DNA from: Escherichia coli | Lineage (GTDB): Bacteria; Pseudomonadota; Gammaproteobacteria; Enterobacterales; Enterobacteriaceae | Length of the DNA stretch: 64,000 nt | Assembly (NCBI RefSeq): GCF_009931435.1 | Contig: NZ_CP043414.1 | Direction: 5' to 3' (one strand) | Shown: in pieces, positions 5,961 to 45,006 of the stretch | Numbering within the stretch: position 1 is the stretch's first letter | Layout: every line of letters starts with the position of its first letter | The notes under the pieces: model-generated | The model's database searches: none | Told to the model about the DNA's origin: nothing | What the model saw: only the letters and a program-made list of their open reading frames with translations | Made by a program: the position numbers and the translations under genes

Positions 5961-6088
5961 AAATATGCCCTTTAAGTATTTATCTGATTCTGCAACTGAA
6001 TCCTTCCGCTCAGGCTAACCCCGCCATTATCAACTATGCTTTTCTCTTAATTCGCTGAAAACAACAGTAAAAGAATGAGGAAAGCATC

Positions 6089-7006
6089 ATGCCACTCTCA
6101 AAGCTCTGGGCAGGTTCACTGGTTTTGTTGGCAGCCGTGAGCCTGCCGCTACAGGCGGCTTCCCCCGTTAAAGTCGGTTCGAAAATCGATACCGAAGGCG
6201 CGCTACTCGGCAACATTATTTTGCAAGTGCTGGAAAGCCACGGCGTACCGACGGTGAATAAAGTCCAGTTGGGAACCACGCCGGTGGTGCGCGGGGCGAT
6301 TACTTCCGGTGAACTGGATATCTATCCGGAATATACCGGCAATGGCGCGTTTTTCTTTAAAGATGAAAACGATGCGGCGTGGAAAAATGCCGGGCAAGGC
6401 TACGAGAAAGTCAAAAAGCTCGATGCAGAACAAAACAAGTTAATCTGGCTGACGCCTGCGCCTGCAAATAACACCTGGACCATCGCCGTGCGTCAGGATG
6501 TTGCAGAGAAAAACAAACTCACTTCGCTTGCCGACCTGAGTCGTTATCTGAAAGACGGTGGCACCTTCAAACTGGCGGCCTCAGCAGAGTTTATCGAACG
6601 CGCCGATGCCTTACCCGCTTTTGAAAAAGCCTATGGCTTTAAGCTCAGTCAGGATCAGTTGCTGTCACTGGCCGGTGGCGACACTGCGGTGACAATCAAA
6701 GCTGCTGCCCAGCAAACATCCGGCGTTAATGCGGCGATGGCTTACGGCACCGACGGCCCGGTCGCGGCGCTGGGGCTGCAAACCTTAAGCGATCCGCAAG
6801 GCGTGCAACCTATCTACGCGCCTGCACCAGTGGTGCGTGAATCGGTGTTGAAGGAGTATCCGCAAATGGCACAGTGGCTACAGCCAGTCTTCGCCAGCCT
6901 CGATGCAAAAACATTGCAGCAACTGAATGCCAGCATTGCTGTGGAAGGACTGGATGCCAAAAAAGTGGCTGCCGACTACCTGAAACAAAAAGGGTGGACG
7001 AAGTAA
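6089..7006 (+). CDS. osmF: Periplasmic glycine betaine-binding protein of an osmoprotectant ABC transporter
   Basis: 305-aa ORF with signal peptide; first gene of a four-gene operon with tightly spaced or overlapping junctions. Confidence 0.85.
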   Translation: MPLSKLWAGSLVLLAAVSLPLQAASPVKVGSKIDTEGALLGNIILQVLESHGVPTVNKVQLGTTPVVRGAITSGELDIYPEYTGNGAFFFKDENDAAWKNAGQGYEKVKKLDAEQNKLIWLTPAPANNTWTIAVRQDVAEKNKLTSLADLSRYLKDGGTFKLAASAEFIERADALPAFEKAYGFKLSQDQLLSLAGGDTAVTIKAAAQQTSGVNAAMAYGTDGPVAALGLQTLSDPQGVQPIYAPAPVVRESVLKEYPQMAQWLQPVFASLDAKTLQQLNASIAVEGLDAKKVAADYLKQKGWTK

Positions 7007-7012
7007 TTTCCC

Positions 7013-8170
7013 GTGACTTATTTCCGTATTAATCCTGTTCTGGCGCTGCTACTGTTGCTGACGGCAATCGCAGCGGCGCTGCCGTTTATCAGTTACGCGC
7101 CTAATCGTTTAGTCTCGGGTGAGGGGCGTCATCTCTGGCAGCTGTGGCCGCAAACGATCTGGATGCTGGTGGGCGTTGGTTGCGCCTGGCTGACCGCCTG
7201 TTTTATTCCCGGTAAAAAAGGCAGCATTTTTGCACTCATTCTGGCGCAATTCGTCTTCATATTGCTGGTGTGGGGCGCGGGAAAGGCGGCGACACAACTG
7301 GCGCAAAATGGCAGTGCGCTGGCGCGTACCAGCCTCGGCAGTGGTTTCTGGCTGGCTGCGGCGCTGGCATTGCTGGCCTGTAGCGATGCCATCCGCCGAA
7401 TCTCCACGCATCCGCTGTGGCGCTGGTTGTTGCATATGCAGATTGCCATTATTCCGCTGTGGTTGCTGTATTCCGGCGCGCTTAACGATCTCTCGCTAAT
7501 GAAAGAATACGCCAACCGTCAGGATGTATTTAATGACGCGCTGGCGCAACATCTGACGTTGCTGTTTGGTGCGGTGCTGCCTGCGTTAGTGATTGGTGTG
7601 CCGCTGGGCGTCTGGTGCTACTTTTCCACTGCGCGGCAGGGGGCGATTTTTTCTCTGCTGAATGTCATTCAGACCGTGCCTTCGGTGGCGCTCTTTGGCC
7701 TGTTGATTGCGCCGCTTGCCGCGCTGGTTACGGCCTTTCCGTGGCTGGGTAAGCTCGGCATAGCAGGAACCGGAATGACACCCGCACTGATTGCGCTGGT
7801 GCTCTATGCCTTGCTGCCGCTGGTGCGCGGTGTGGTAGTCGGCTTGAACCAGATCCCGCGCGATGTGCTGGAGAGCGCCAGAGCGATGGGCATGAGCGGG
7901 GCGCAGCGATTCCTGCATGTTCAGTTACCGCTGGCGTTACCGGTATTTCTGCGCAGCCTGCGGGTGGTGATGGTGCAAACCGTCGGCATGGCGGTGATTG
8001 CGGCGTTAATCGGCGCAGGTGGTTTTGGTGCGCTGGTTTTCCAGGGGCTGCTAAGCAGTGCCATTGATTTAGTGTTGCTGGGGGTGATCCCGGTAATCGT
8101 ACTGGCGGTGCTGATCGACGCACTGTTCGATCTGGTTATCGCACTGCTGAAGGTGAAAAGTAATGATTGA
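7013..8170 (+). CDS. yehY: ABC transporter permease
   Basis: 385-aa polytopic membrane ORF; 6 bp after osmF and overlapping yehX. Confidence 0.85.
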
Positions 8171-9972: not shown

Positions 9973-10704
9973 TTAAATGCCGAGTGGGAAAATATCATGG
10001 CCTTGTTCCTGCCAACTGGTAAGTTGCTGCTGTTGGGCAGAGGTTCGATTTTCACCGCACCACACCAGCAATGTACGGCCTTCGAACAGTTCAGGGCGTA
10101 GTTGATTGAGCGAGTGGGCGAGGACATCAATGCGCCATCCTTGTTGACTGGCAATCCAGCCCTCTAGCCACAGACGGGTGGTATCCTGAATATTCCAGCC
10201 AACCACCAGCGCATCTTTACCCTGTTTTTTACGTGCCGAAGCCAGACAAATGGCGATGTAGTTGATCAGTACGCCGTCGAGGATCGCCAGCAGCGCCTGG
10301 AGAGTCGGTTGTTGGCACTGAAGCCGTCGGCGCAGAGGAATAAACAGGTGCGTGGTGAGTGTCTGGGCGGGGTAATCCTGACCGCGCTCTTTGATCCACG
10401 TTCGCAGGCTATGCAGATTGCCACTTTGCAGGTAAGTCAGTAATGTTTCTTGCTGATCGCGCCAGCCGTTCTGCACATCAACATTTTCATTACTGAGCAG
10501 CATTTTAACTTTGCTGACCTGCACGCCGTTGTCGATCCAGCGTTTGATCTCGCGGATCCGGTCAATATCGGCATCATTGAACAGCCGATGACCGCCGTCT
10601 GTCCGTTGCGGTTTCAGCAATCCGTAACGCCTCTGCCACGCGCGTAACGTGACAGGGTTAATATCACAAAGCAACGCCACTTCACCAATTGTGTAAAGCG
10701 CCAT
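9973..10704 (-). CDS. mlrA: MerR-family transcriptional regulator of curli (csgD) expression
   Basis: 243-aa ORF; N-terminal MerR helix-turn-helix MALYTIGEVALLCDINPVTLRAWQRRYGLLKPQRTDGGHRLF. Confidence 0.9.
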   Translation of the reverse strand: MALYTIGEVALLCDINPVTLRAWQRRYGLLKPQRTDGGHRLFNDADIDRIREIKRWIDNGVQVSKVKMLLSNENVDVQNGWRDQQETLLTYLQSGNLHSLRTWIKERGQDYPAQTLTTHLFIPLRRRLQCQQPTLQALLAILDGVLINYIAICLASARKKQGKDALVVGWNIQDTTRLWLEGWIASQQGWRIDVLAHSLNQLRPELFEGRTLLVWCGENRTSAQQQQLTSWQEQGHDIFPLGI

Positions 10705-36152: not shown

Positions 36153-37262
36153 ATGAACGAACAATCCCAGGCCAAATCACCAGAAGCCCTGCGCGCAATG
36201 GTCGCCGGGACACTGGCCAATTTTCAGCACCCAACCCTCAAGCATAACCTCACCACGCTGAAAGCGTTGCACCATGTCGCCTGGATGGACGACACGCTGC
36301 ATGTGGAACTGGTTATGCCGTTCGTATGGCATAGCGCGTTCGAAGAGTTAAAAGAGCAATGTAGCGCCGAACTGCTGCGCATTACCGGGGCGAAAGCTAT
36401 CGACTGGAAACTGTCGCACAATATCGCCACCTTAAAACGCGTGAAGAATCAGCCGGGAATTAACGGCGTGAAGAACATCATTGCGGTCAGCTCCGGTAAA
36501 GGCGGCGTGGGTAAATCCTCCACGGCGGTAAATCTGGCGCTGGCACTGGCGGCGGAAGGGGCGAAAGTCGGCATTCTGGACGCCGATATCTACGGCCCAT
36601 CAATACCCACCATGCTGGGCGCAGAAAATCAGCGTCCAACTTCGCCGGACGGTACCCATATGGCACCGATTATGTCTCATGGACTGGCAACCAATTCAAT
36701 TGGTTATCTGGTCACTGACGACAATGCGATGGTGTGGCGTGGTCCGATGGCGAGCAAGGCGTTAATGCAGATGTTGCAGGAAACCTTGTGGCCGGATCTC
36801 GACTATCTGGTGCTTGATATGCCGCCAGGCACCGGTGACATTCAATTGACACTGGCACAAAACATTCCAGTAACTGGCGCGGTAGTGGTCACCACCCCGC
36901 AGGACATTGCGTTGATCGATGCGAAAAAAGGCATTGTGATGTTCGAGAAAGTCGAGGTTCCGGTGCTCGGTATTGTCGAGAACATGAGTGTGCATATTTG
37001 CAGTAACTGTGGTCACCATGAACCGATTTTCGGTACCGGTGGTGCAGAGAAACTGGCCGAGAAATACCACACGCAGTTGCTGGGGCAGATGCCGTTACAC
37101 ATTTCCTTACGTGAAGATCTCGATAAAGGCACGCCAACAGTTATCAGCCGTCCGGAGAGCGAATTTACTGCTATCTACCGCCAGCTGGCTGACCGCGTTG
37201 CAGCCCAGCTTTATTGGCAGGGAGAAGTCATTCCTGGCGAGATTTCCTTCCGCGCGGTCTGA
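36153..37262 (+). CDS. mrp: Fe-S cluster carrier ATPase Mrp/ApbC
   Basis: 369-aa ORF; P-loop SGKGGVGKSS; CxxC motif (CSNCGHH). Confidence 0.9.
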   Translation: MNEQSQAKSPEALRAMVAGTLANFQHPTLKHNLTTLKALHHVAWMDDTLHVELVMPFVWHSAFEELKEQCSAELLRITGAKAIDWKLSHNIATLKRVKNQPGINGVKNIIAVSSGKGGVGKSSTAVNLALALAAEGAKVGILDADIYGPSIPTMLGAENQRPTSPDGTHMAPIMSHGLATNSIGYLVTDDNAMVWRGPMASKALMQMLQETLWPDLDYLVLDMPPGTGDIQLTLAQNIPVTGAVVVTTPQDIALIDAKKGIVMFEKVEVPVLGIVENMSVHICSNCGHHEPIFGTGGAEKLAEKYHTQLLGQMPLHISLREDLDKGTPTVISRPESEFTAIYRQLADRVAAQLYWQGEVIPGEISFRAV

Positions 37263-37289
37263 CGCGCATTAACCTTTTTGGTTGTTTTT

Positions 37290-37342
37290 TATACACCGCA
37301 GAGATGTTACATTGATGCGGTGTATTTGTTTTTGCCGCATTA
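37290..37342 (+). terminator. Rho-independent terminator after mrp
   Basis: Hairpin acaccgcagagatgttacattgatgcggtgt followed by tttgttttt. Confidence 0.5.
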
Positions 37343-37524
37343 ATGAACACTTATTTAATGCTGCGAATATTCTGCGGACCTTCGTCCGAAACTCTATAAA
37401 GTCGATTGATCGTACAGGCAATGCATCATTATCATCCTTCGTGGCTGTGTAGTGGATGTACAGCTATAGTTTGTTATGCACTCATTCTATCCAGGCATAA
37501 CCTTTACTACAGGGATAACGTTCA

Positions 37525-37806
37525 ATGAATAAGTACTGGCTGTCAGGAATTATTTTTCTTGCCTATGGAATGGCTTCTCCCGCGTTCTCTTCACAGACTG
37601 CCACATTAACGATTAATGGCAGGATCAGTCCCCCAACATGCAGTATGGCTATGGTTAATGGTCAACCTCAACAGCATTGTGGTCAGTTAACGTATGATGT
37701 TGATACCCGTCATCAGGTTTCTTCGCCAGTCAAAGGTGTGACGACAGAAGTGGTTGTTGCAGGTAGCGATAGCAAACGTCGAATCGTGTTAAATCGCTAC
37801 GATTAA
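37525..37806 (+). CDS. yehE: Small secreted protein YehE
   Basis: 93-aa ORF with N-terminal signal peptide, upstream of the fimbrial operon. Confidence 0.75.
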   Translation: MNKYWLSGIIFLAYGMASPAFSSQTATLTINGRISPPTCSMAMVNGQPQQHCGQLTYDVDTRHQVSSPVKGVTTEVVVAGSDSKRRIVLNRYD

Positions 37807-38101
37807 TTTGCCACCCTGGTTTTTTAAGCGGATTTAGAAAGCTGAAATCATTCGTGTGAATGATTTCAGCTTTTTTATTGATATTAATAATACCATTTAA
37901 AAAAATCTGCATTAATTAATAGATGTGATAAATATTTAATATGCTTAAGTATTTGTTGTATTTATATTGCAATAGTTAATTTGTTTTAAATCAATAAAAC
38001 AATATGTTTACATTGCGGCAACTTTTTTGATGTGAGAAATTTGTTTCCAAGAGATACAGACTCTTAACAACCAAAAAATAAATTTTATTAAGGGACATAT
38101 T

Positions 38102-38644
38102 ATGAAACGTTCAATTATTGCTGCCGCTGTCTTTTCTTCTTTTTTTATGAGCGCTGGGGTATTTGCCGCAGACGTTGATACCGGAACATTAACCATTAAA
38201 GGGAATATTGCAGAATCTCCGTGTAAATTCGAAGCGGGTGGCGATTCAGTAAGTATTAATATGCCAACTGTACCAACCACTGTCTTTGAAGGTAAAGCTA
38301 AATACTCGACCTATGATGATGCAGTCGGTGTAACCAGCAGCATGTTAAAAATTAGCTGTCCGAAAGAAGTTGCTGGTGTAAAACTCTCGTTGATTACCAA
38401 CGATAAAATAACCGGAAACGATAAGGCGATAGCCAGTAGCAACGATACCGTGGGGTACTATCTCTATTTAGGTGATAACAGCGATGTCCTGGATGTTTCT
38501 GCACCTTTTAACATTGAAAGTTATAAAACAGCGGAAGGTCAATATGCTATTCCGTTTAAAGCAAAATACCTGAAGCTGACAGATAATTCAGTGCAATCAG
38601 GTGATGTGTTATCTTCTCTGGTTATGCGTGTGGCGCAGGATTAA
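38102..38644 (+). CDS. yehD: Chaperone-usher fimbrial major subunit
   Basis: 180-aa ORF with signal peptide and fimbrial subunit architecture. Confidence 0.85.
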   Translation: MKRSIIAAAVFSSFFMSAGVFAADVDTGTLTIKGNIAESPCKFEAGGDSVSINMPTVPTTVFEGKAKYSTYDDAVGVTSSMLKISCPKEVAGVKLSLITNDKITGNDKAIASSNDTVGYYLYLGDNSDVLDVSAPFNIESYKTAEGQYAIPFKAKYLKLTDNSVQSGDVLSSLVMRVAQD

Positions 38645-38659
38645 TAAATAAAATTTCAA

Positions 38660-38712
38660 ATTTCTCCAGGTAATAAACATGGCCGCTATCCCCATGGCGG
38701 CCTTTTAATTTA
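38660..38712 (+). terminator. Intra-operon hairpin (attenuator) after yehD
   Basis: Palindrome ggccgctatccccatggcggcc followed by ttttaattt. Confidence 0.5.
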
Positions 38713-38724
38713 AGAGGCATTAAG

Positions 38725-39399
38725 ATGAAAGGATTATTAGCTTTACTCATTTCTTCTATGGTCCTTCCTGCACATGCCGGTATTGTCATCTACGGGACGC
38801 GTATTATTTACCCGGCAGAAAACAAAGAAGTGACGGTGCAGTTGATGAATCAGGGAAACCGTTCTTCGCTGCTGCAGGCGTGGATTGATGATGGCGATAC
38901 GTCGTTACCACCAGAAAAAATTCAGGTTCCTTTCATGTTAACGCCACCAGTGGCAAAAATAGGGGCAAATTCCGGGCAGCAAGTAAAAATCAAAATTATG
39001 TCGAATAAACTGCCCACTAATAAAGAGAGCATTTTTTATCTGAATGTTCTGGATATTCCACCAAATAGTCCAGAGCAAGAGGGCAAGAATGCACTGAAAT
39101 TTGCAATGCAAAACAGAATCAAATTGTTTTACCGGCCTGCGGGTATTGCACCGGTAAATAAAGCGACATTTAAAAAGTTACTGGTAAATCGCAGTGGCAA
39201 TGGATTGGTGATAAAAAATGACTCAGCAAATTGGGTAACGATTTCGGATGTCAAAGCTAATAATGTCAAAGTCAATTATGAAACTATTATGATTGCCCCC
39301 TTAGAAAGTCAGAGTATTAATGTCAAAAGTAATAATGCGAATAACTGGTATCTGACCATTATCGATGACCATGGCAACTATATTAGTGACAAAATTTAA
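38725..39399 (+). CDS. yehC: Periplasmic fimbrial chaperone (PapD-like); start uncertain
   Basis: 224-aa ORF with signal peptide and chaperone-like sequence. Confidence 0.8.
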   Translation: MKGLLALLISSMVLPAHAGIVIYGTRIIYPAENKEVTVQLMNQGNRSSLLQAWIDDGDTSLPPEKIQVPFMLTPPVAKIGANSGQQVKIKIMSNKLPTNKESIFYLNVLDIPPNSPEQEGKNALKFAMQNRIKLFYRPAGIAPVNKATFKKLLVNRSGNGLVIKNDSANWVTISDVKANNVKVNYETIMIAPLESQSINVKSNNANNWYLTIIDDHGNYISDKI

Positions 39400-41895
39400 T
39401 TGCAGGAGCTGCCTATGTTGAGAATGACCCCACTTGCATCAGCAATCGTAGCGTTATTGCTCGGCATTGAAGCTTATGCAGCTGAAGAAACCTTTGATAC
39501 CCATTTTATGATAGGTGGAATGAAAGACCAGCAGGTTGCAAATATTCGTCTTGATGATAATCAACCCTTGCCGGGGCAGTATGACATCGATATTTATGTC
39601 AATAAGCAATGGCGCGGGAAATATGAGATTATTGTTAAAGACAACCCGCAAGAAACATGTTTATCAAGGGAAATTATCAAGCGGTTAGGCATTAATACCG
39701 ATAACTTTGCCAGCGGTAAGCAATGTTTAACATTTGAGCAACTTGTTCACGGTGGGAGATATACCTGGGATATCGGAGTTTTTCGTCTCGATTTCAGTGT
39801 ACCGCAGGCGTGGGTGGAGGAACTGGAAAGTGGCTATGTTCCACCGGAAAACTGGGAGCGGGGTATTAATGCGTTTTATACCTCTTATTATGTGAGTCAG
39901 TATTACAGCGACTATAAAGCGTCGGGTAATAGCAAGAGTACATATGTACGTTTTAACAGCGGGTTAAATTTACTGGGGTGGCAACTGCATTCTGATGCCA
40001 GTTTCAGTAAAACAAATAGCAATCCAGGGGTGTGGAAAAGCAATACCCTGTATCTGGAACGTGGATTTGCCCAACTTCTCGGCACGCTTCGCGTGGGTGA
40101 TATGTACACATCAAGCGATATTTTCGATTCTGTTCGCTTCAGCGGTGTGCGGTTGTTTCGTGATATGCAGATGTTGCCTAACTCGAAACAAAATTTTACT
40201 CCACGGGTGCAGGGGATTGCTCAGAGTAACGCGCTGGTAACGATTGAACAGAACGGTTTTGTGGTTTATCAGAAAGAGGTTCCTCCTGGCCCGTTTGCGA
40301 TTACAGATTTGCAGTTGGCCGGTGGTGGAGCAGATCTTGATGTCAGCGTGAAAGAGGCGGACGGTTCGGTAACCACCTATCTGGTGCCTTATGCAGCAGT
40401 GCCGAATATGCTGCAACCCGGCGTGTCGAAATATGATTTTGCGGCAGGTCGTAGCCATATTGAAGGGGCGAGCAAACAAAGTGATTTTGTTCAGGCGGGT
40501 TATCAGTATGGTTTTAATAACTTATTGACGCTGTATGGCGGATCGATGGTCGCGAATAATTATTACGCGTTCACTTTGGGCACAGGCTGGAATACACGCA
40601 TTGGTGCCATTTCCGTCGATGCCACGAAGTCGCATAGTAAACAAGACAACGGCGATGTGTTTGACGGGCAAAGTTATCAAATTGCCTACAACAAATTTGT
40701 GAGCCAAACGTCGACGCGTTTTGGTCTGGCGGCCTGGCGTTATTCGTCGCGTGATTACCGGACATTTAACGATCACGTTTGGGCAAACAATAAAGATAAT
40801 TATCGCCGTGATGAAAACGATATCTATGACATTGCCGATTATTACCAGAACGATTTTGGCCGTAAAAATAGCTTTTCTGCCAATATGAGCCAGTCATTGC
40901 CAGAAGGCTGGGGTTCTGTGTCCTTAAGTACGTTATGGCGAGATTACTGGGGGCGTAGCGGCAGCAGTAAGGATTATCAGTTGAGTTATTCCAACAACCT
41001 GCGACGGATAAGCTATACCCTCGCGGCAAGCCAGGCTTATGACGAGAATCATCATGAAGAGAAACGTTTTAATATTTTTATATCGATTCCCTTTGATTGG
41101 GGTGATGACGTTACGACGCCTCGTCGGCAAATATATATGTCTAACTCAACGACGTTTGATGATCAGGGTTTTGCCTCAAATAATACGGGATTATCGGGAA
41201 CCGTTGGAAGCCGGGATCAATTTAACTATGGGGTCAACCTGAGTCATCAGCATCAGGGAAATGAAACGACAGCTGGAGCGAATTTAACCTGGAACGCGCC
41301 GGTGGCAACGGTGAATGGCAGTTATAGTCAGTCGAGTACTTATCGACAGGCTGGAGCCAGTCTTTCAGGGGGCATTGTCGCCTGGTCGGGTGGCGTTAAT
41401 CTGGCGAACCGTCTTTCCGAAACGTTTGCTGTGATGAATGCGCCAGGAATTAAAGATGCTTATGTCAATGGGCAAAAATATCGCACAACAAACCGTAATG
41501 GAGTGGTGGTATACGACGGAATGACACCTTATCGGGAAAATCACCTGATGCTGGATGTGTCGCAAAGCGATAGCGAAGCAGAATTACGTGGCAACCGGAA
41601 CATTGCCGTCCCTTTTCGCGGCGCGGTTGTACTGGTTAATTTTGATACCGATCAGCGCAAGCCCTGGTTTATAAAAGCGTTAAGAGCGGATGGGCAACCA
41701 TTAACGTTTGGTTATGAAGTCAATGATATCCACGGTCACAATATTGGTGTTGTCGGTCAGGGAAGCCAGTTATTTATCCGCACTAATGATGTACCGCCAT
41801 CGGTTAATGTGGCAATTGATAAACAACAAGGGCTCTCATGCACAATCACCTTCGGTAAAGAGATTGATGAAAATAGGAATTATATTTGCCAGTAA
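39400..41895 (+). CDS. yehB: Outer-membrane fimbrial usher; start uncertain
   Basis: 831-aa ORF, beta-barrel usher architecture, immediately after the chaperone. Confidence 0.85.
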   Translation: MQELPMLRMTPLASAIVALLLGIEAYAAEETFDTHFMIGGMKDQQVANIRLDDNQPLPGQYDIDIYVNKQWRGKYEIIVKDNPQETCLSREIIKRLGINTDNFASGKQCLTFEQLVHGGRYTWDIGVFRLDFSVPQAWVEELESGYVPPENWERGINAFYTSYYVSQYYSDYKASGNSKSTYVRFNSGLNLLGWQLHSDASFSKTNSNPGVWKSNTLYLERGFAQLLGTLRVGDMYTSSDIFDSVRFSGVRLFRDMQMLPNSKQNFTPRVQGIAQSNALVTIEQNGFVVYQKEVPPGPFAITDLQLAGGGADLDVSVKEADGSVTTYLVPYAAVPNMLQPGVSKYDFAAGRSHIEGASKQSDFVQAGYQYGFNNLLTLYGGSMVANNYYAFTLGTGWNTRIGAISVDATKSHSKQDNGDVFDGQSYQIAYNKFVSQTSTRFGLAAWRYSSRDYRTFNDHVWANNKDNYRRDENDIYDIADYYQNDFGRKNSFSANMSQSLPEGWGSVSLSTLWRDYWGRSGSSKDYQLSYSNNLRRISYTLAASQAYDENHHEEKRFNIFISIPFDWGDDVTTPRRQIYMSNSTTFDDQGFASNNTGLSGTVGSRDQFNYGVNLSHQHQGNETTAGANLTWNAPVATVNGSYSQSSTYRQAGASLSGGIVAWSGGVNLANRLSETFAVMNAPGIKDAYVNGQKYRTTNRNGVVVYDGMTPYRENHLMLDVSQSDSEAELRGNRNIAVPFRGAVVLVNFDTDQRKPWFIKALRADGQPLTFGYEVNDIHGHNIGVVGQGSQLFIRTNDVPPSVNVAIDKQQGLSCTITFGKEIDENRNYICQ

Positions 41896-41910
41896 TAATC
41901 GGGTGGCTCT

Positions 41911-42945
41911 ATGAAAATTCGCATAATGTTATTTATATTAATTATGATGGTAATGCCTGTGAGTTATGCAGCATGTTATGGAGAGTTATCTGCTCAGCAT
42001 AATTTGGCTGTTCAGGGGGATTTTGCACTGACTCAAACACAAACGGCGACATATGAGCATAATTTCAACGATTCATCATGTGTGAGTACAAATACCATCA
42101 TTCCCATGAATTCATCGGATATTATTGTTGGGCTGTATAACGATACTATTAAATTAAATTTACATTTTGAATGGATCAATAAAAACAACATCACGTTGTC
42201 AAATAATCAGACCAGTTTCACCAGTGGTTATTCGATAACGGTAACACCTGCGGCTAGTAATGCAAAAGTAAATGTTTCTGCGGGGGGCAGCGGTTCAGTG
42301 ATGATTAATGGTGTTGCGACATTATCCAGTGCTTCATCATCGACACGCGGGAGTGCTGCAGTACAATTTTTACTGTGTTTATTCGGTGGCAAGTCATGGG
42401 ATGCATGTGTAAATAGCTACAGAAATGCATTGGCACAAAATGCAGGTGTCTATTCCTTTAATCTGACATTGTCATACAACCCGATAACCACAACCTGCAA
42501 ACCGGACGATTTATTAATTACTTTAGAGAGTATTCCCATTTCACAATTACCAGCTACAGGTAACAAAGCAACAATAAATAGTAACAAAGGGGATATTGTT
42601 CTGCGTTGTAAAAACTTATTAGGTCAACAAAATCAAACATCACGGAAAATGCAGGTGTATTTATCAAGTTCTGATTTGTTAACCAACAGCAACACAATAC
42701 TGAAAGGTGCGGAAGATAATGGCGTAGGATTTATTCTTGAAAGTAATGGTTCTCCAGTCACACTTTTAAATATCACTAACAGCAGTAAAGAATACACAAA
42801 TTTAAAAGAAATTGCGGCAAAGTCAAAACTTACAGATACAACGGTTTCAATTCCGGTAACTGCCAGTTACTACGTCTACGATACAAATAAAGTTAAATCT
42901 GGCGCTCTGGAGGCTACCGCCTTAATCAACGTGAAATATGATTAA
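41911..42945 (+). CDS. yehA: Fimbrial adhesin-like protein
   Basis: 344-aa ORF with signal peptide; last gene of the operon. Confidence 0.8.
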   Translation: MKIRIMLFILIMMVMPVSYAACYGELSAQHNLAVQGDFALTQTQTATYEHNFNDSSCVSTNTIIPMNSSDIIVGLYNDTIKLNLHFEWINKNNITLSNNQTSFTSGYSITVTPAASNAKVNVSAGGSGSVMINGVATLSSASSSTRGSAAVQFLLCLFGGKSWDACVNSYRNALAQNAGVYSFNLTLSYNPITTTCKPDDLLITLESIPISQLPATGNKATINSNKGDIVLRCKNLLGQQNQTSRKMQVYLSSSDLLTNSNTILKGAEDNGVGFILESNGSPVTLLNITNSSKEYTNLKEIAAKSKLTDTTVSIPVTASYYVYDTNKVKSGALEATALINVKYD

Positions 42946-42989
42946 TAACAAGTAAGACGAGCAAGTGGCTAATAATAAAAAATAACAAG

Positions 42990-43030
42990 GTGTCTGCATT
43001 TCCCCCTCATGATGAGGGGGCTTTTTTTAG
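42990..43030. terminator. Bidirectional terminator between yehA and rcnB
   Basis: Palindrome ccccctcatgatgaggggg flanked by T-runs on both strands. Confidence 0.55.
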
Positions 43031-43365
43031 CGATGATAAAAAATCTCACCGTCGTAGGCTTTAATGATTTTACCGTCGGCATCGTTGATCAACACGTATG
43101 CGCCACCCATATAGGTCCAGTGCGTTCCGGCATCAGGAGCGGGCAGGTTACGTAACTGCCACTGCTTAATGTTGTACTCATCGGTGCGGTACATCTCTGG
43201 GACGGTATCGCCTGGTTTGAAATGCTTAAAGTCAGCAATGAAACTGCTTAACTCATACTTAGAAATTCCCGAGGTATTGGTCGAACCCGCGGTGGCTGGT
43301 GCGGCCCAGGCGGCACTGGTAACCAGCAATAGCGCACCCAGCAACATCTTATTTTTAATGGTCAT
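43027..43365 (-). CDS. rcnB: Periplasmic nickel/cobalt homeostasis protein RcnB
   Basis: Start MTIKNKMLLGALLLVTSAAWA (signal peptide) with ggagag Shine-Dalgarno-like sequence gives 112 aa; the 172-aa ORF-track call has a spurious N-terminal extension. Confidence 0.85.
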   Translation of the reverse strand: MTIKNKMLLGALLLVTSAAWAAPATAGSTNTSGISKYELSSFIADFKHFKPGDTVPEMYRTDEYNIKQWQLRNLPAPDAGTHWTYMGGAYVLINDADGKIIKAYDGEIFYHR

Positions 43366-43569
43366 ATACTCTCCACTTTGGGGATCTGTAATATCAGTCG
43401 CATATCTTTCCTGCCATACAATATAACTGACAAGCGATATTTTGTTAGTGATCCCATGATTTCGTAAAAAGTGTAAATGAAAGGATGCCCTAAAAGCATC
43501 CTTAGCGAGCAGAGAGCCAGCGGAAATAGCTGATTTAAGAATCATCCTGGGCTGAAGATAACATGCAGC

Positions 43570-44869: not shown

Positions 44870-45006
44870 TCGCAACCAAACGACTCGGGGTGCCCTTCTG
44901 CGTGAAGGCTGAGAAATACCCGTATCACCTGATCTGGATAATGCCAGCGTAGGGAAGTCACAGACCACCAGGTCATTGCTTCTTCACGTTATGGCAGGAG
45001 CAAACT
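44870..45006 (+). promoter_or_regulatory. Thiamine pyrophosphate (TPP) riboswitch in the thiM leader
   Basis: Canonical aptamer ggggtgcccttctgcgtgaaggctgagaaatacccgtatcacctgatctggataatgccagcgtagggaa, then an expression platform containing the ggcaggag Shine-Dalgarno sequence just before the thiM ATG. Confidence 0.9.

Follow-up and report, generated by a model that had tools for sequence, protein, structure and literature searches.

What does the very AT-rich DNA in front of the yeh pilus genes of Escherichia coli do, and what is the role of the hairpin behind the first of these genes? The questions are raised by positions 37807–42945 of a 64-kb stretch of E. coli DNA (the window), which run exactly from the first base past the yehE stop codon to the final base of the yehA stop codon and contain yehD, yehC, yehB and yehA. 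The answer that we favour, and hold to be likely, is an intact Yeh operon of the gamma-4 type, with yehE as a separate transcription unit, a conserved leader silenced by H-NS, and a post-pilin hairpin that favours an excess of pilin. The operon, its H-NS silencing, the pili and the pectin receptor are already known from publications. The additions made here are comparative. The proximal half of the leader appears to be a control region conserved across genera, the post-pilin hairpin is universal among the relatives and its U-tract optional, the terminator of yehE is supported by covariation, and the product of yehE looks pilin-derived. These additions sharpen the hypotheses and leave the classification of the locus unchanged. 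Gene content, composition, structures and conservation were determined here, and H-NS, SlyA and BolA control, the pili and the pectin binding are taken from the literature. The position of the promoter, the function of the operator and the mechanism of the hairpin are what we infer.

The region 37400–43100 was compared by megablast with 5426 complete E. coli genomes. The locus was found in 5423 of them, with at least 80% coverage in 5221, and these loci are invariably annotated yehE/yehD/yehC/yehB/yehA. The identity is 98.8% with the closest genome and 95–96% with the majority. The order and lengths of the open reading frames (ORFs) equal those annotated in the closest genome and in K-12 MG1655, except that the K-12 yehC is longer. 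As every gene is as long as its counterpart in the RefSeq record of the closest genome, the operon is intact. According to the Pfam search, YehD matches PF00419 (E value 3e-7, which passes the cut-off), YehC has both chaperone domains (PapD_N, 6e-42; PapD_C, 3e-8), and YehB has the three usher domains PapC_N (6e-34), Usher (5e-196) and PapC_C (9e-9). The family profile of YehD also matches FimA structures. Residues 184–344 of YehA match PF00419, and residues 21–193 match PDB 9N4G at an E value of 6e-102. This entry is the solved receptor-binding domain labelled 'YehD protein', which equals K-12 YehA. K-12 names are used throughout this text; the paper that defines the sister type Yhl uses them in reverse, with yehA as the pilin and yehD as the adhesin (PMC12778044). 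The locus is certainly the intact chromosomal Yeh chaperone-usher pilus operon yehD-yehC-yehB-yehA of E. coli. It contains the pilin, chaperone, usher and two-domain adhesin of the Yeh/Stc type at the position between apbC (mrp)/yehE and rcnB. Synteny, lengths and Pfam domains thus agree with the gene names given in the original prediction. The Yeh usher clade is gamma-4 (PMC7098969, PMC12778044), and Yeh is a core-associated fimbrial type, intact in 92% of surveyed strains and orthologous to Stc of Salmonella (PMC3559732).

The AT-rich leader and its conserved proximal half

The spacer between yehE and yehD (37807–38101) is 295 bp long and contains 24.7% G+C, compared with 50% for the window. 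This is the window minimum. A G+C content as low as this occurs in just 0.1% of all 295-bp windows, every one of them overlapping the spacer, and no other 295-bp stretch within the 64 kb falls below 30%. The leader contains eight homopolymeric A or T runs of at least 4 bp, five of them of at least 6 bp, and nine unbroken A/T runs of 8–19 bp. The number of TpA steps per 100 bp is 10.8 in the leader and 4.8 in the window. These results confirm that roughly 300 bp upstream of yehD are very AT-rich with long A/T runs, as had been noticed from the sequence. The operon genes are also AT-rich, with G+C fractions of 0.41 for yehD, 0.39 for yehC and 0.37 for yehA, against 0.50 for the window.

The same prediction regarded this composition as typical of an H-NS-silenced promoter, and published K-12 experiments bear this out. 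According to PMC5797941, yehDCBA of K-12 is a cryptic chaperone-usher operon that appears in two data sets on H-NS binding, and its expression rises 3.6-fold on over-production of the H-NS antagonist SlyA. The same paper, citing Korea et al. 2010, describes it as repressed by H-NS and functional under a constitutive promoter. Further support for H-NS binding or repression in K-12 is given in PMC3559732, and yehD and yehC are induced by over-production of BolA (PMC4337573). H-NS silencing of yehDCBA is thus supported for K-12; in the strain studied here it is presumed.

The operon was also called cryptic, which is true of K-12 in the laboratory. However, PMC7098969 states that the O157:H7 yeh promoter was active in earlier work, more so at 28 °C, and a yeh mutant of a fim-negative strain is impaired in gut colonisation (PMC12778044). 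The term is therefore dated. In S. Typhi, stc has one of the more active promoters of the fimbrial operons (PMC5809473). The expectation that fimbriae form on induced expression was also correct: after induced expression of ECs2914–2918 from a construct that starts at yehE, Yeh fimbriae were visible by electron microscopy, and they raised the adhesion to HeLa cells (PMC7098969). In a 2026 paper the structure of the adhesin domain was solved, and the adhesin was found to bind pectin (PMC12778044).

For comparison, 80 loci encoding relatives of YehC were collected, one genome per species, and seven neighbouring proteins were located at each locus. The order apbC-yehE-yehD-yehC-yehB-yehA-rcnB is shared by Escherichia species, Salmonella enterica subsp. 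arizonae and diarizonae, and many Citrobacter. In 25 loci (window included), yehE precedes yehD on the same strand. The spacer between them is 272–295 bp in 24 of these and 319 bp in the remaining one (L020), and its G+C content is 24–32% in all. Three parts can be told apart in the alignment of the 25 leaders: the terminator of yehE, a distal part that evolves fast, and a conserved proximal part (Table 1). Conservation of at least 90% is seen at 11 of the 73 distal columns and at 84 of the 157 proximal ones. Between the window and Salmonella, Citrobacter or Superficieibacter, the proximal leader is 68–80% identical and the distal leader 37–52%. The identity at 4-fold degenerate sites is 0.42–0.56 for apbC and 0.27–0.38 for yehB, which is saturated, and the distal leader is about the same as these neutral sites. 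Since the proximal leader keeps 68–80% identity despite saturated neutral sites, it is probably a sequence-specific control region, under more constraint than AT-richness needs. Within E. coli the proximal leader is a single-copy sequence in 5314 of the 5426 genomes, always with at least 90% identity, even in genomes whose whole locus is only 80–90% identical. It is 97% identical to that of K-12. An exact copy of the 27-nt core AATCAANAAAACANNNNNTTTACATTG is present in 25 loci, each with yehE upstream. The core occurs once in the window and was not found in the paralogous operons without yehE.

These results bear on the simplest alternative, in which the leader is merely a foreign AT-rich spacer, bound non-specifically by H-NS and free of sequence-specific information apart from the promoter. 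The extreme AT content, the AT-richness of the whole operon and the neutral rate of the distal 70 bp are what such a spacer would show. The proximal 152 bp are not, because they keep their identity across genera in which the pilins are only 30–39% identical, with the conserved columns and the exact 27-nt motif described above. We consider the foreign-spacer explanation unlikely. The original description of the leader as AT-rich DNA is right as to its composition, but it misses the sequence constraint on the proximal half.

A candidate sigma-70 promoter, TTTAAA-18 bp-TACATT, lies in the proximal leader and overlaps the 27-nt motif. When a simple sigma-70 scan was mapped onto the alignment, this candidate occupied the same column in 24 of the 25 leaders. 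Transcription of yehD would start near 38021, which would leave about 80 nt untranslated ahead of the gene. The only leader promoter reported by the promoter scan itself, TTGATA-17-AAAAAT (37878–37906), was rejected: it sits in the unconserved distal part and is lost from the Yhl-type allele. A perfect inverted repeat, TTGTTTTA-N6-TAAAACAA, overlaps the candidate -35 element, resembles an operator and is almost invariant across genera. Other conserved blocks are located at 37950–37970, 38031–38041 and 38050–38066. The 152-bp region, the palindrome and the candidate -35 and -10 elements are precise targets in the search for a regulator of Yeh/Stc. The question of which gut or plant-material signal triggers these pili could be addressed through the conserved promoter region.

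The high conservation extends past the predicted start and includes a short AAGAG-N7-CTCTT repeat, as might be expected if the proximal leader acted as RNA, in the form of a structured 5' untranslated region, a riboswitch or a small RNA. However, RNAalifold gave no consensus structure for the proximal leader of 18 orthologues (-1.9 kcal/mol, essentially zero covariation), and in Rfam (37200–43200, E values up to 1) nothing came near a gathering score; the only matches were sub-threshold chance matches on terminators. Because there is neither a consensus structure nor an Rfam match, the proximal constraint probably acts on the DNA. An 8-codon ORF at 38005 (MFTLRQLF) was also considered as a leader peptide and rejected, as its start codon is not conserved. 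The structured leader or small RNA was rejected on the RNAalifold result, and we judge an RNA function to be very unlikely.

Phase variation is frequent among fimbrial operons, and several short inverted repeats are present in the leader. A phase switch could follow the type of pap (Dam/Lrp with paired GATC sites) or of fim (an invertible promoter segment). However, the repeats are short and AT-rich, and the promoter region is not bracketed by them. GATC is absent from the leader of the window and from 23 of the 25 orthologous leaders, and the apbC–rcnB interval is without a recombinase or regulator gene. A pap- or fim-type switch was rejected for want of GATC sites and of a recombinase, and we regard it as scarcely credible for this operon.

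The hairpin after the pilin gene

An intra-operon hairpin after the major subunit gene had been predicted and is present at 38681–38702. Its sequence is GGCCGCTAT-CCCC-ATGGCGGCC, with nine G+C-rich pairs, followed by TTTTAATTT, which has six T in eight positions. It is located 36 nt past the yehD stop codon and 22 nt ahead of the yehC ATG. The folding energy is -14.5 to -15.7 kcal/mol, and the single-sequence z score of about -2 is modestly unusual. In the window the hairpin together with TTTTAATTT passes the terminator-like scan. Within Escherichia two stem positions show compensatory changes from G-C to A-U, and one changes from U·G to C-G. Across genera a perfect G+C-rich hairpin of 6–13 bp is held by all 34 distinct spacers, with unrelated sequences, and in all 34 it beats at least 95% of the shuffles of the same spacer. 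Since the structure is universal with its sequence replaced and the U-tract is variable, the stem-loop is the feature that appears to be selected.

The K-12 reference annotation (NC_000913.3) gives a yehC of 239 amino acids, which begins 45 nt upstream at an ATG within the hairpin. In the window (38680–38724, which corresponds to 2191601–2191645 of K-12) one extra C in the loop closes the K-12-type frame after nine codons, and the N-terminal extension of K-12 is not kept in other genera. For these reasons ATG 38725 is most likely the true start of yehC, giving 224 amino acids as in the annotations of the Prokaryotic Genome Annotation Pipeline.

These elements can be combined into the following scheme. 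yehE would be transcribed alone and end at its strong intrinsic terminator, and transcription of yehD-yehC-yehB-yehA would begin near 38021, in the conserved proximal half of the leader, from TTTAAA-18 bp-TACATT. In standard laboratory growth H-NS would coat the AT-rich leader and allow hardly any transcription from the promoter. The repression would be relieved by antagonists or by a change of conditions (SlyA, BolA, low temperature, gut signals). Sequence-specific factors probably bind the conserved blocks, including the palindrome over the -35 element. The hairpin would then halt part of the transcripts or protect the 3' end of the pilin message against decay, and it may do both. With just 22 nt between the hairpin and the yehC start, the chaperone, usher and adhesin genes would be reached only by read-through, and pilin would outnumber their products. 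As no promoter fits in these 22 nt, a terminating element must be leaky. Finally, the chaperone and usher would assemble polymers of YehD with the pectin-binding adhesin at the tip.

Several results weigh against this reading. The H-NS high-affinity motif TCGATAAATT is not enriched in the window (85 matches against 68 expected, with up to two mismatches), and the leader contains only matches with two mismatches. Phasing of A-tracts, taken as a proxy for the curvature that was proposed as a check, gave a power of 1.33 at the 10-bp period, compared with 0.78 ± 0.31 in shuffled sequences. This power is reached by 6.8% of the shuffles and is not significant. The candidate promoter is weak, with four of six consensus bases in each hexamer and an 18-bp spacer, and such matches are common in this DNA. 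According to the promoter scan, promoter-like sites in the region are fewer than in shuffles. Lastly, the U-tract of the hairpin is not conserved. At least five T are present in the next 8 nt in 13 of the 34 spacers, and two T at most in 10, among them the O157/Yhl-type allele and E. albertii.

The variable U-tract beside a universal stem-loop would suit another role of the hairpin, in which it stabilises the 3' end of a processed pilin message or blocks exonucleases, and differential mRNA decay rather than termination sets the stoichiometry. In pap, pilin mRNAs that are processed and stabilised by hairpins are known and give a precedent. On the other side, the stem is followed by TTTTAATTT in both the window and K-12, and the terminator-like scan was passed in the window. 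We think that a purely stabilising hairpin is possible but doubtful. The two roles are not mutually exclusive, and the hairpin may terminate some of the transcripts, stabilise the pilin message at its 3' end, or do both.

yehE, its terminator and the neighbouring genes

The small secreted protein YehE had been placed just upstream of the operon. Its length of 93 amino acids and its signal-peptide-like N-terminus in the alignment agree with this, but yehE is a separate transcription unit and not part of the leader. The terminator begins 30 nt past yehE and folds with -26 kcal/mol (z -5.3). In 18 orthologues 94.9% of the cells of the 13 core pairs are paired, compared with 35–47% in slid registers, and 41 double-change cells were counted against 12.5 in shuffles. 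Because the terminator is strong and supported by covariation, yehE is most simply a transcription unit apart from yehDCBA. The inner stem (37848–37864, ATCATT ... GAATGAT) keeps its sequence from genus to genus, whereas the outer stem covaries freely. This inner palindrome, conserved beyond what a terminator needs, may double as a DNA site.

In the alignment of orthologues the signal-peptide-like segment of YehE ends in AFS or AFA. The mature protein starts with (S/T)DTATLTI(N/S)G(R/K)V..PTC, has two invariant cysteines and ends in R(Q/R)IVLNRYD; the final RYD resembles the KYD of the adhesin. With hhalign, residues 1–42 of YehE were aligned with residues 1–44 of the YehD family at a probability of 96.8% (E value 3e-10), and YehD residues 1–44 cross-match DUF2574 (8e-4). 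A search of 1.84 billion representative sequences with the YehE profile gave 33 relatives, mostly of about 90 amino acids, and a few pilins of 181 amino acids matched weakly through their N-termini. None of the 21 YehE orthologues matches Pfam PF00419 even at E values up to 10, and the YehE profile has no match in PDB below an E value of 0.1. The AlphaFold2 model of YehE (21 orthologues) has a mean predicted local distance difference test score of 58.6, too poor for a fold search. In the literature on yehE/DUF2574, only irrelevant matches turned up. At the apbC–rcnB position nearly every locus has yehE together with the operon; the locus of C. sedlakii (L025) is without it. Three further loci combine yehE and the operon with neither apbC nor rcnB close by: two are from Superficieibacter, and one, in which yehE is divergent, is from a metagenome-assembled genome of the Enterobacteriaceae. 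These features suggest the hypothesis that YehE is a pilin-derived mini-subunit.

A bolder proposal would join these observations, and we put it forward only tentatively. yehE, the 152-bp leader and the pilus genes would form one module, and a sequence-specific regulator at the palindrome and the neighbouring blocks, not H-NS alone, would decide the expression of Yeh/Stc. YehE would be a pilin-derived mini-subunit acting in assembly or in periplasmic feedback. The universal hairpin and the pilin-like YehE are in any case testable parts of the control of subunit ratio and assembly in a minimal four-gene pilus system.

The features are collected in Table 1. The gene order in the window from 33.9 to 45.8 kb is metG(-), apbC, yehE, yehD, yehC, yehB, yehA, rcnB(-), rcnA(-), rcnR and thiM. 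In the ORF listing yehB starts at TTG 39400, directly past the yehC stop codon, which is a mere upstream extension; ATG 39415 is the likelier start, with a properly spaced AGGAG ahead. For rcnB the listing gives an ORF of 172 amino acids (43027–43545), and the annotations give 112 amino acids (43027–43365). The T-run of the terminator after yehA overlaps the rcnB stop codon. A thiamine pyrophosphate riboswitch is expected ahead of thiM at about 44890–44986, because one is annotated at 9991–10087 of L001, the closest genome. In some clinical lineages (strains EC01440 and EC958, the latter of ST131) the yeh locus is broken by IS1 insertions; the operon of the window is intact.

Table 1. Coordinates of the features of the yeh locus in the window
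Feature	Position	Strand	Description
yehE	37525–37806	+	DUF2574 protein, 93 amino acids (Pfam E value 1e-51); signal-peptide-like N-terminus; mature N-terminus like pilin donor-strand region
yehE intrinsic terminator	37836–37876	+	Core stem 37841–37870; T-run (T6) 37871–37876
Distal leader	37877–37949	+	Fast-evolving, AT-rich
Proximal leader	37950–38101	+	152 bp; candidate promoter/operator region; Shine-Dalgarno AAGGG 38090–38094
Inverted repeat	37981–38002		Perfect; operator-like; overlaps candidate -35
Candidate sigma-70 promoter	37985–38014	+	-35 TTTAAA 37985–37990; 18-bp spacer; -10 TACATT 38009–38014
yehD	38102–38644	+	Major pilin, 180 amino acids; Pfam Fimbrial PF00419; K-12 name (yehA in papers on uropathogenic E. 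coli)
Post-pilin hairpin	38681–38711	+	Stem-loop 38681–38702 plus TTTTAATTT 38703–38711
yehC	38725–39399	+	Periplasmic chaperone, 224 amino acids; Shine-Dalgarno AAGAGG upstream; Pfam PapD_N, PapD_C
yehB	39415–41895	+	Outer-membrane usher, 826 amino acids; Shine-Dalgarno AGGAG upstream; Pfam PapC_N, Usher, PapC_C
yehA	41911–42945	+	Two-domain tip adhesin, 344 amino acids; K-12 name (yehD in papers on uropathogenic E. coli)
Operon terminator	43002–43028	+	CCCCCTCATGATGAGGGGG then CTTTTTTT; adjoins stop codon of convergent rcnB

Comparison with known systems

The yehDCBA operon of K-12 and the Yeh pilus of uropathogenic E. coli (UPEC) have the same apbC-yehE...rcnB position, the same four genes and the same lengths. 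The protein identities between K-12 and the window are 93–99%. The allele of the window differs from that of K-12 by the extra C in the hairpin loop.

The locus of the Yhl pilus of phylogroup E and O157:H7, as represented by strain ERL04-3476, is also the same, and Yhl shares its architecture, its conserved proximal leader and its hairpin stem with the window. However, its pilin, chaperone and YehE are only 68–87% identical to those of the window, and its hairpin is without a U-tract. The receptor-binding domain of its adhesin matches PDB 8V9V (E value 2e-111), whereas that of the window matches 9N4G. At the Yhl locus L003 (adhesin at 6009–7040) the proximal leader is still 91% identical to the window. 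The relation between Yhl and Yeh looks as if the adhesin head, the pilin and YehE had been replaced by other alleles and the control region among them had stayed fixed.

Stc of Salmonella (stcABCD) and its Citrobacter orthologues are syntenic with the window, and yehE is present. The usher is 64–81% and the chaperone 56–71% identical. They share an AT-rich leader of like length (272–295 bp, with one outlier of 319 bp), the same core motif and the post-pilin hairpin. In contrast, the pilin is only 30–39% identical, the adhesin is mostly unrecognisable, and the sequence of the hairpin is unrelated. According to these identities (loci L009–L037), the exposed pilin turns over fast relative to the assembly machinery.

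In pap, fim and K99 a G+C-rich stem-loop lies directly 3' of the major subunit gene, before the assembly genes, and is thought to yield an excess of pilin. The yeh hairpin is similarly placed, and its U-tract varies among the yeh relatives.

Other cryptic loci of K-12 that are controlled by H-NS and SlyA (elf, sfm, yad, hlyE and gsp) resemble yeh in that their promoter regions are AT-rich, H-NS is reported to bind them, and over-production of SlyA induces them (PMC5797941). Compared with these, the promoter-proximal DNA of yeh is conserved well past what AT-richness requires.

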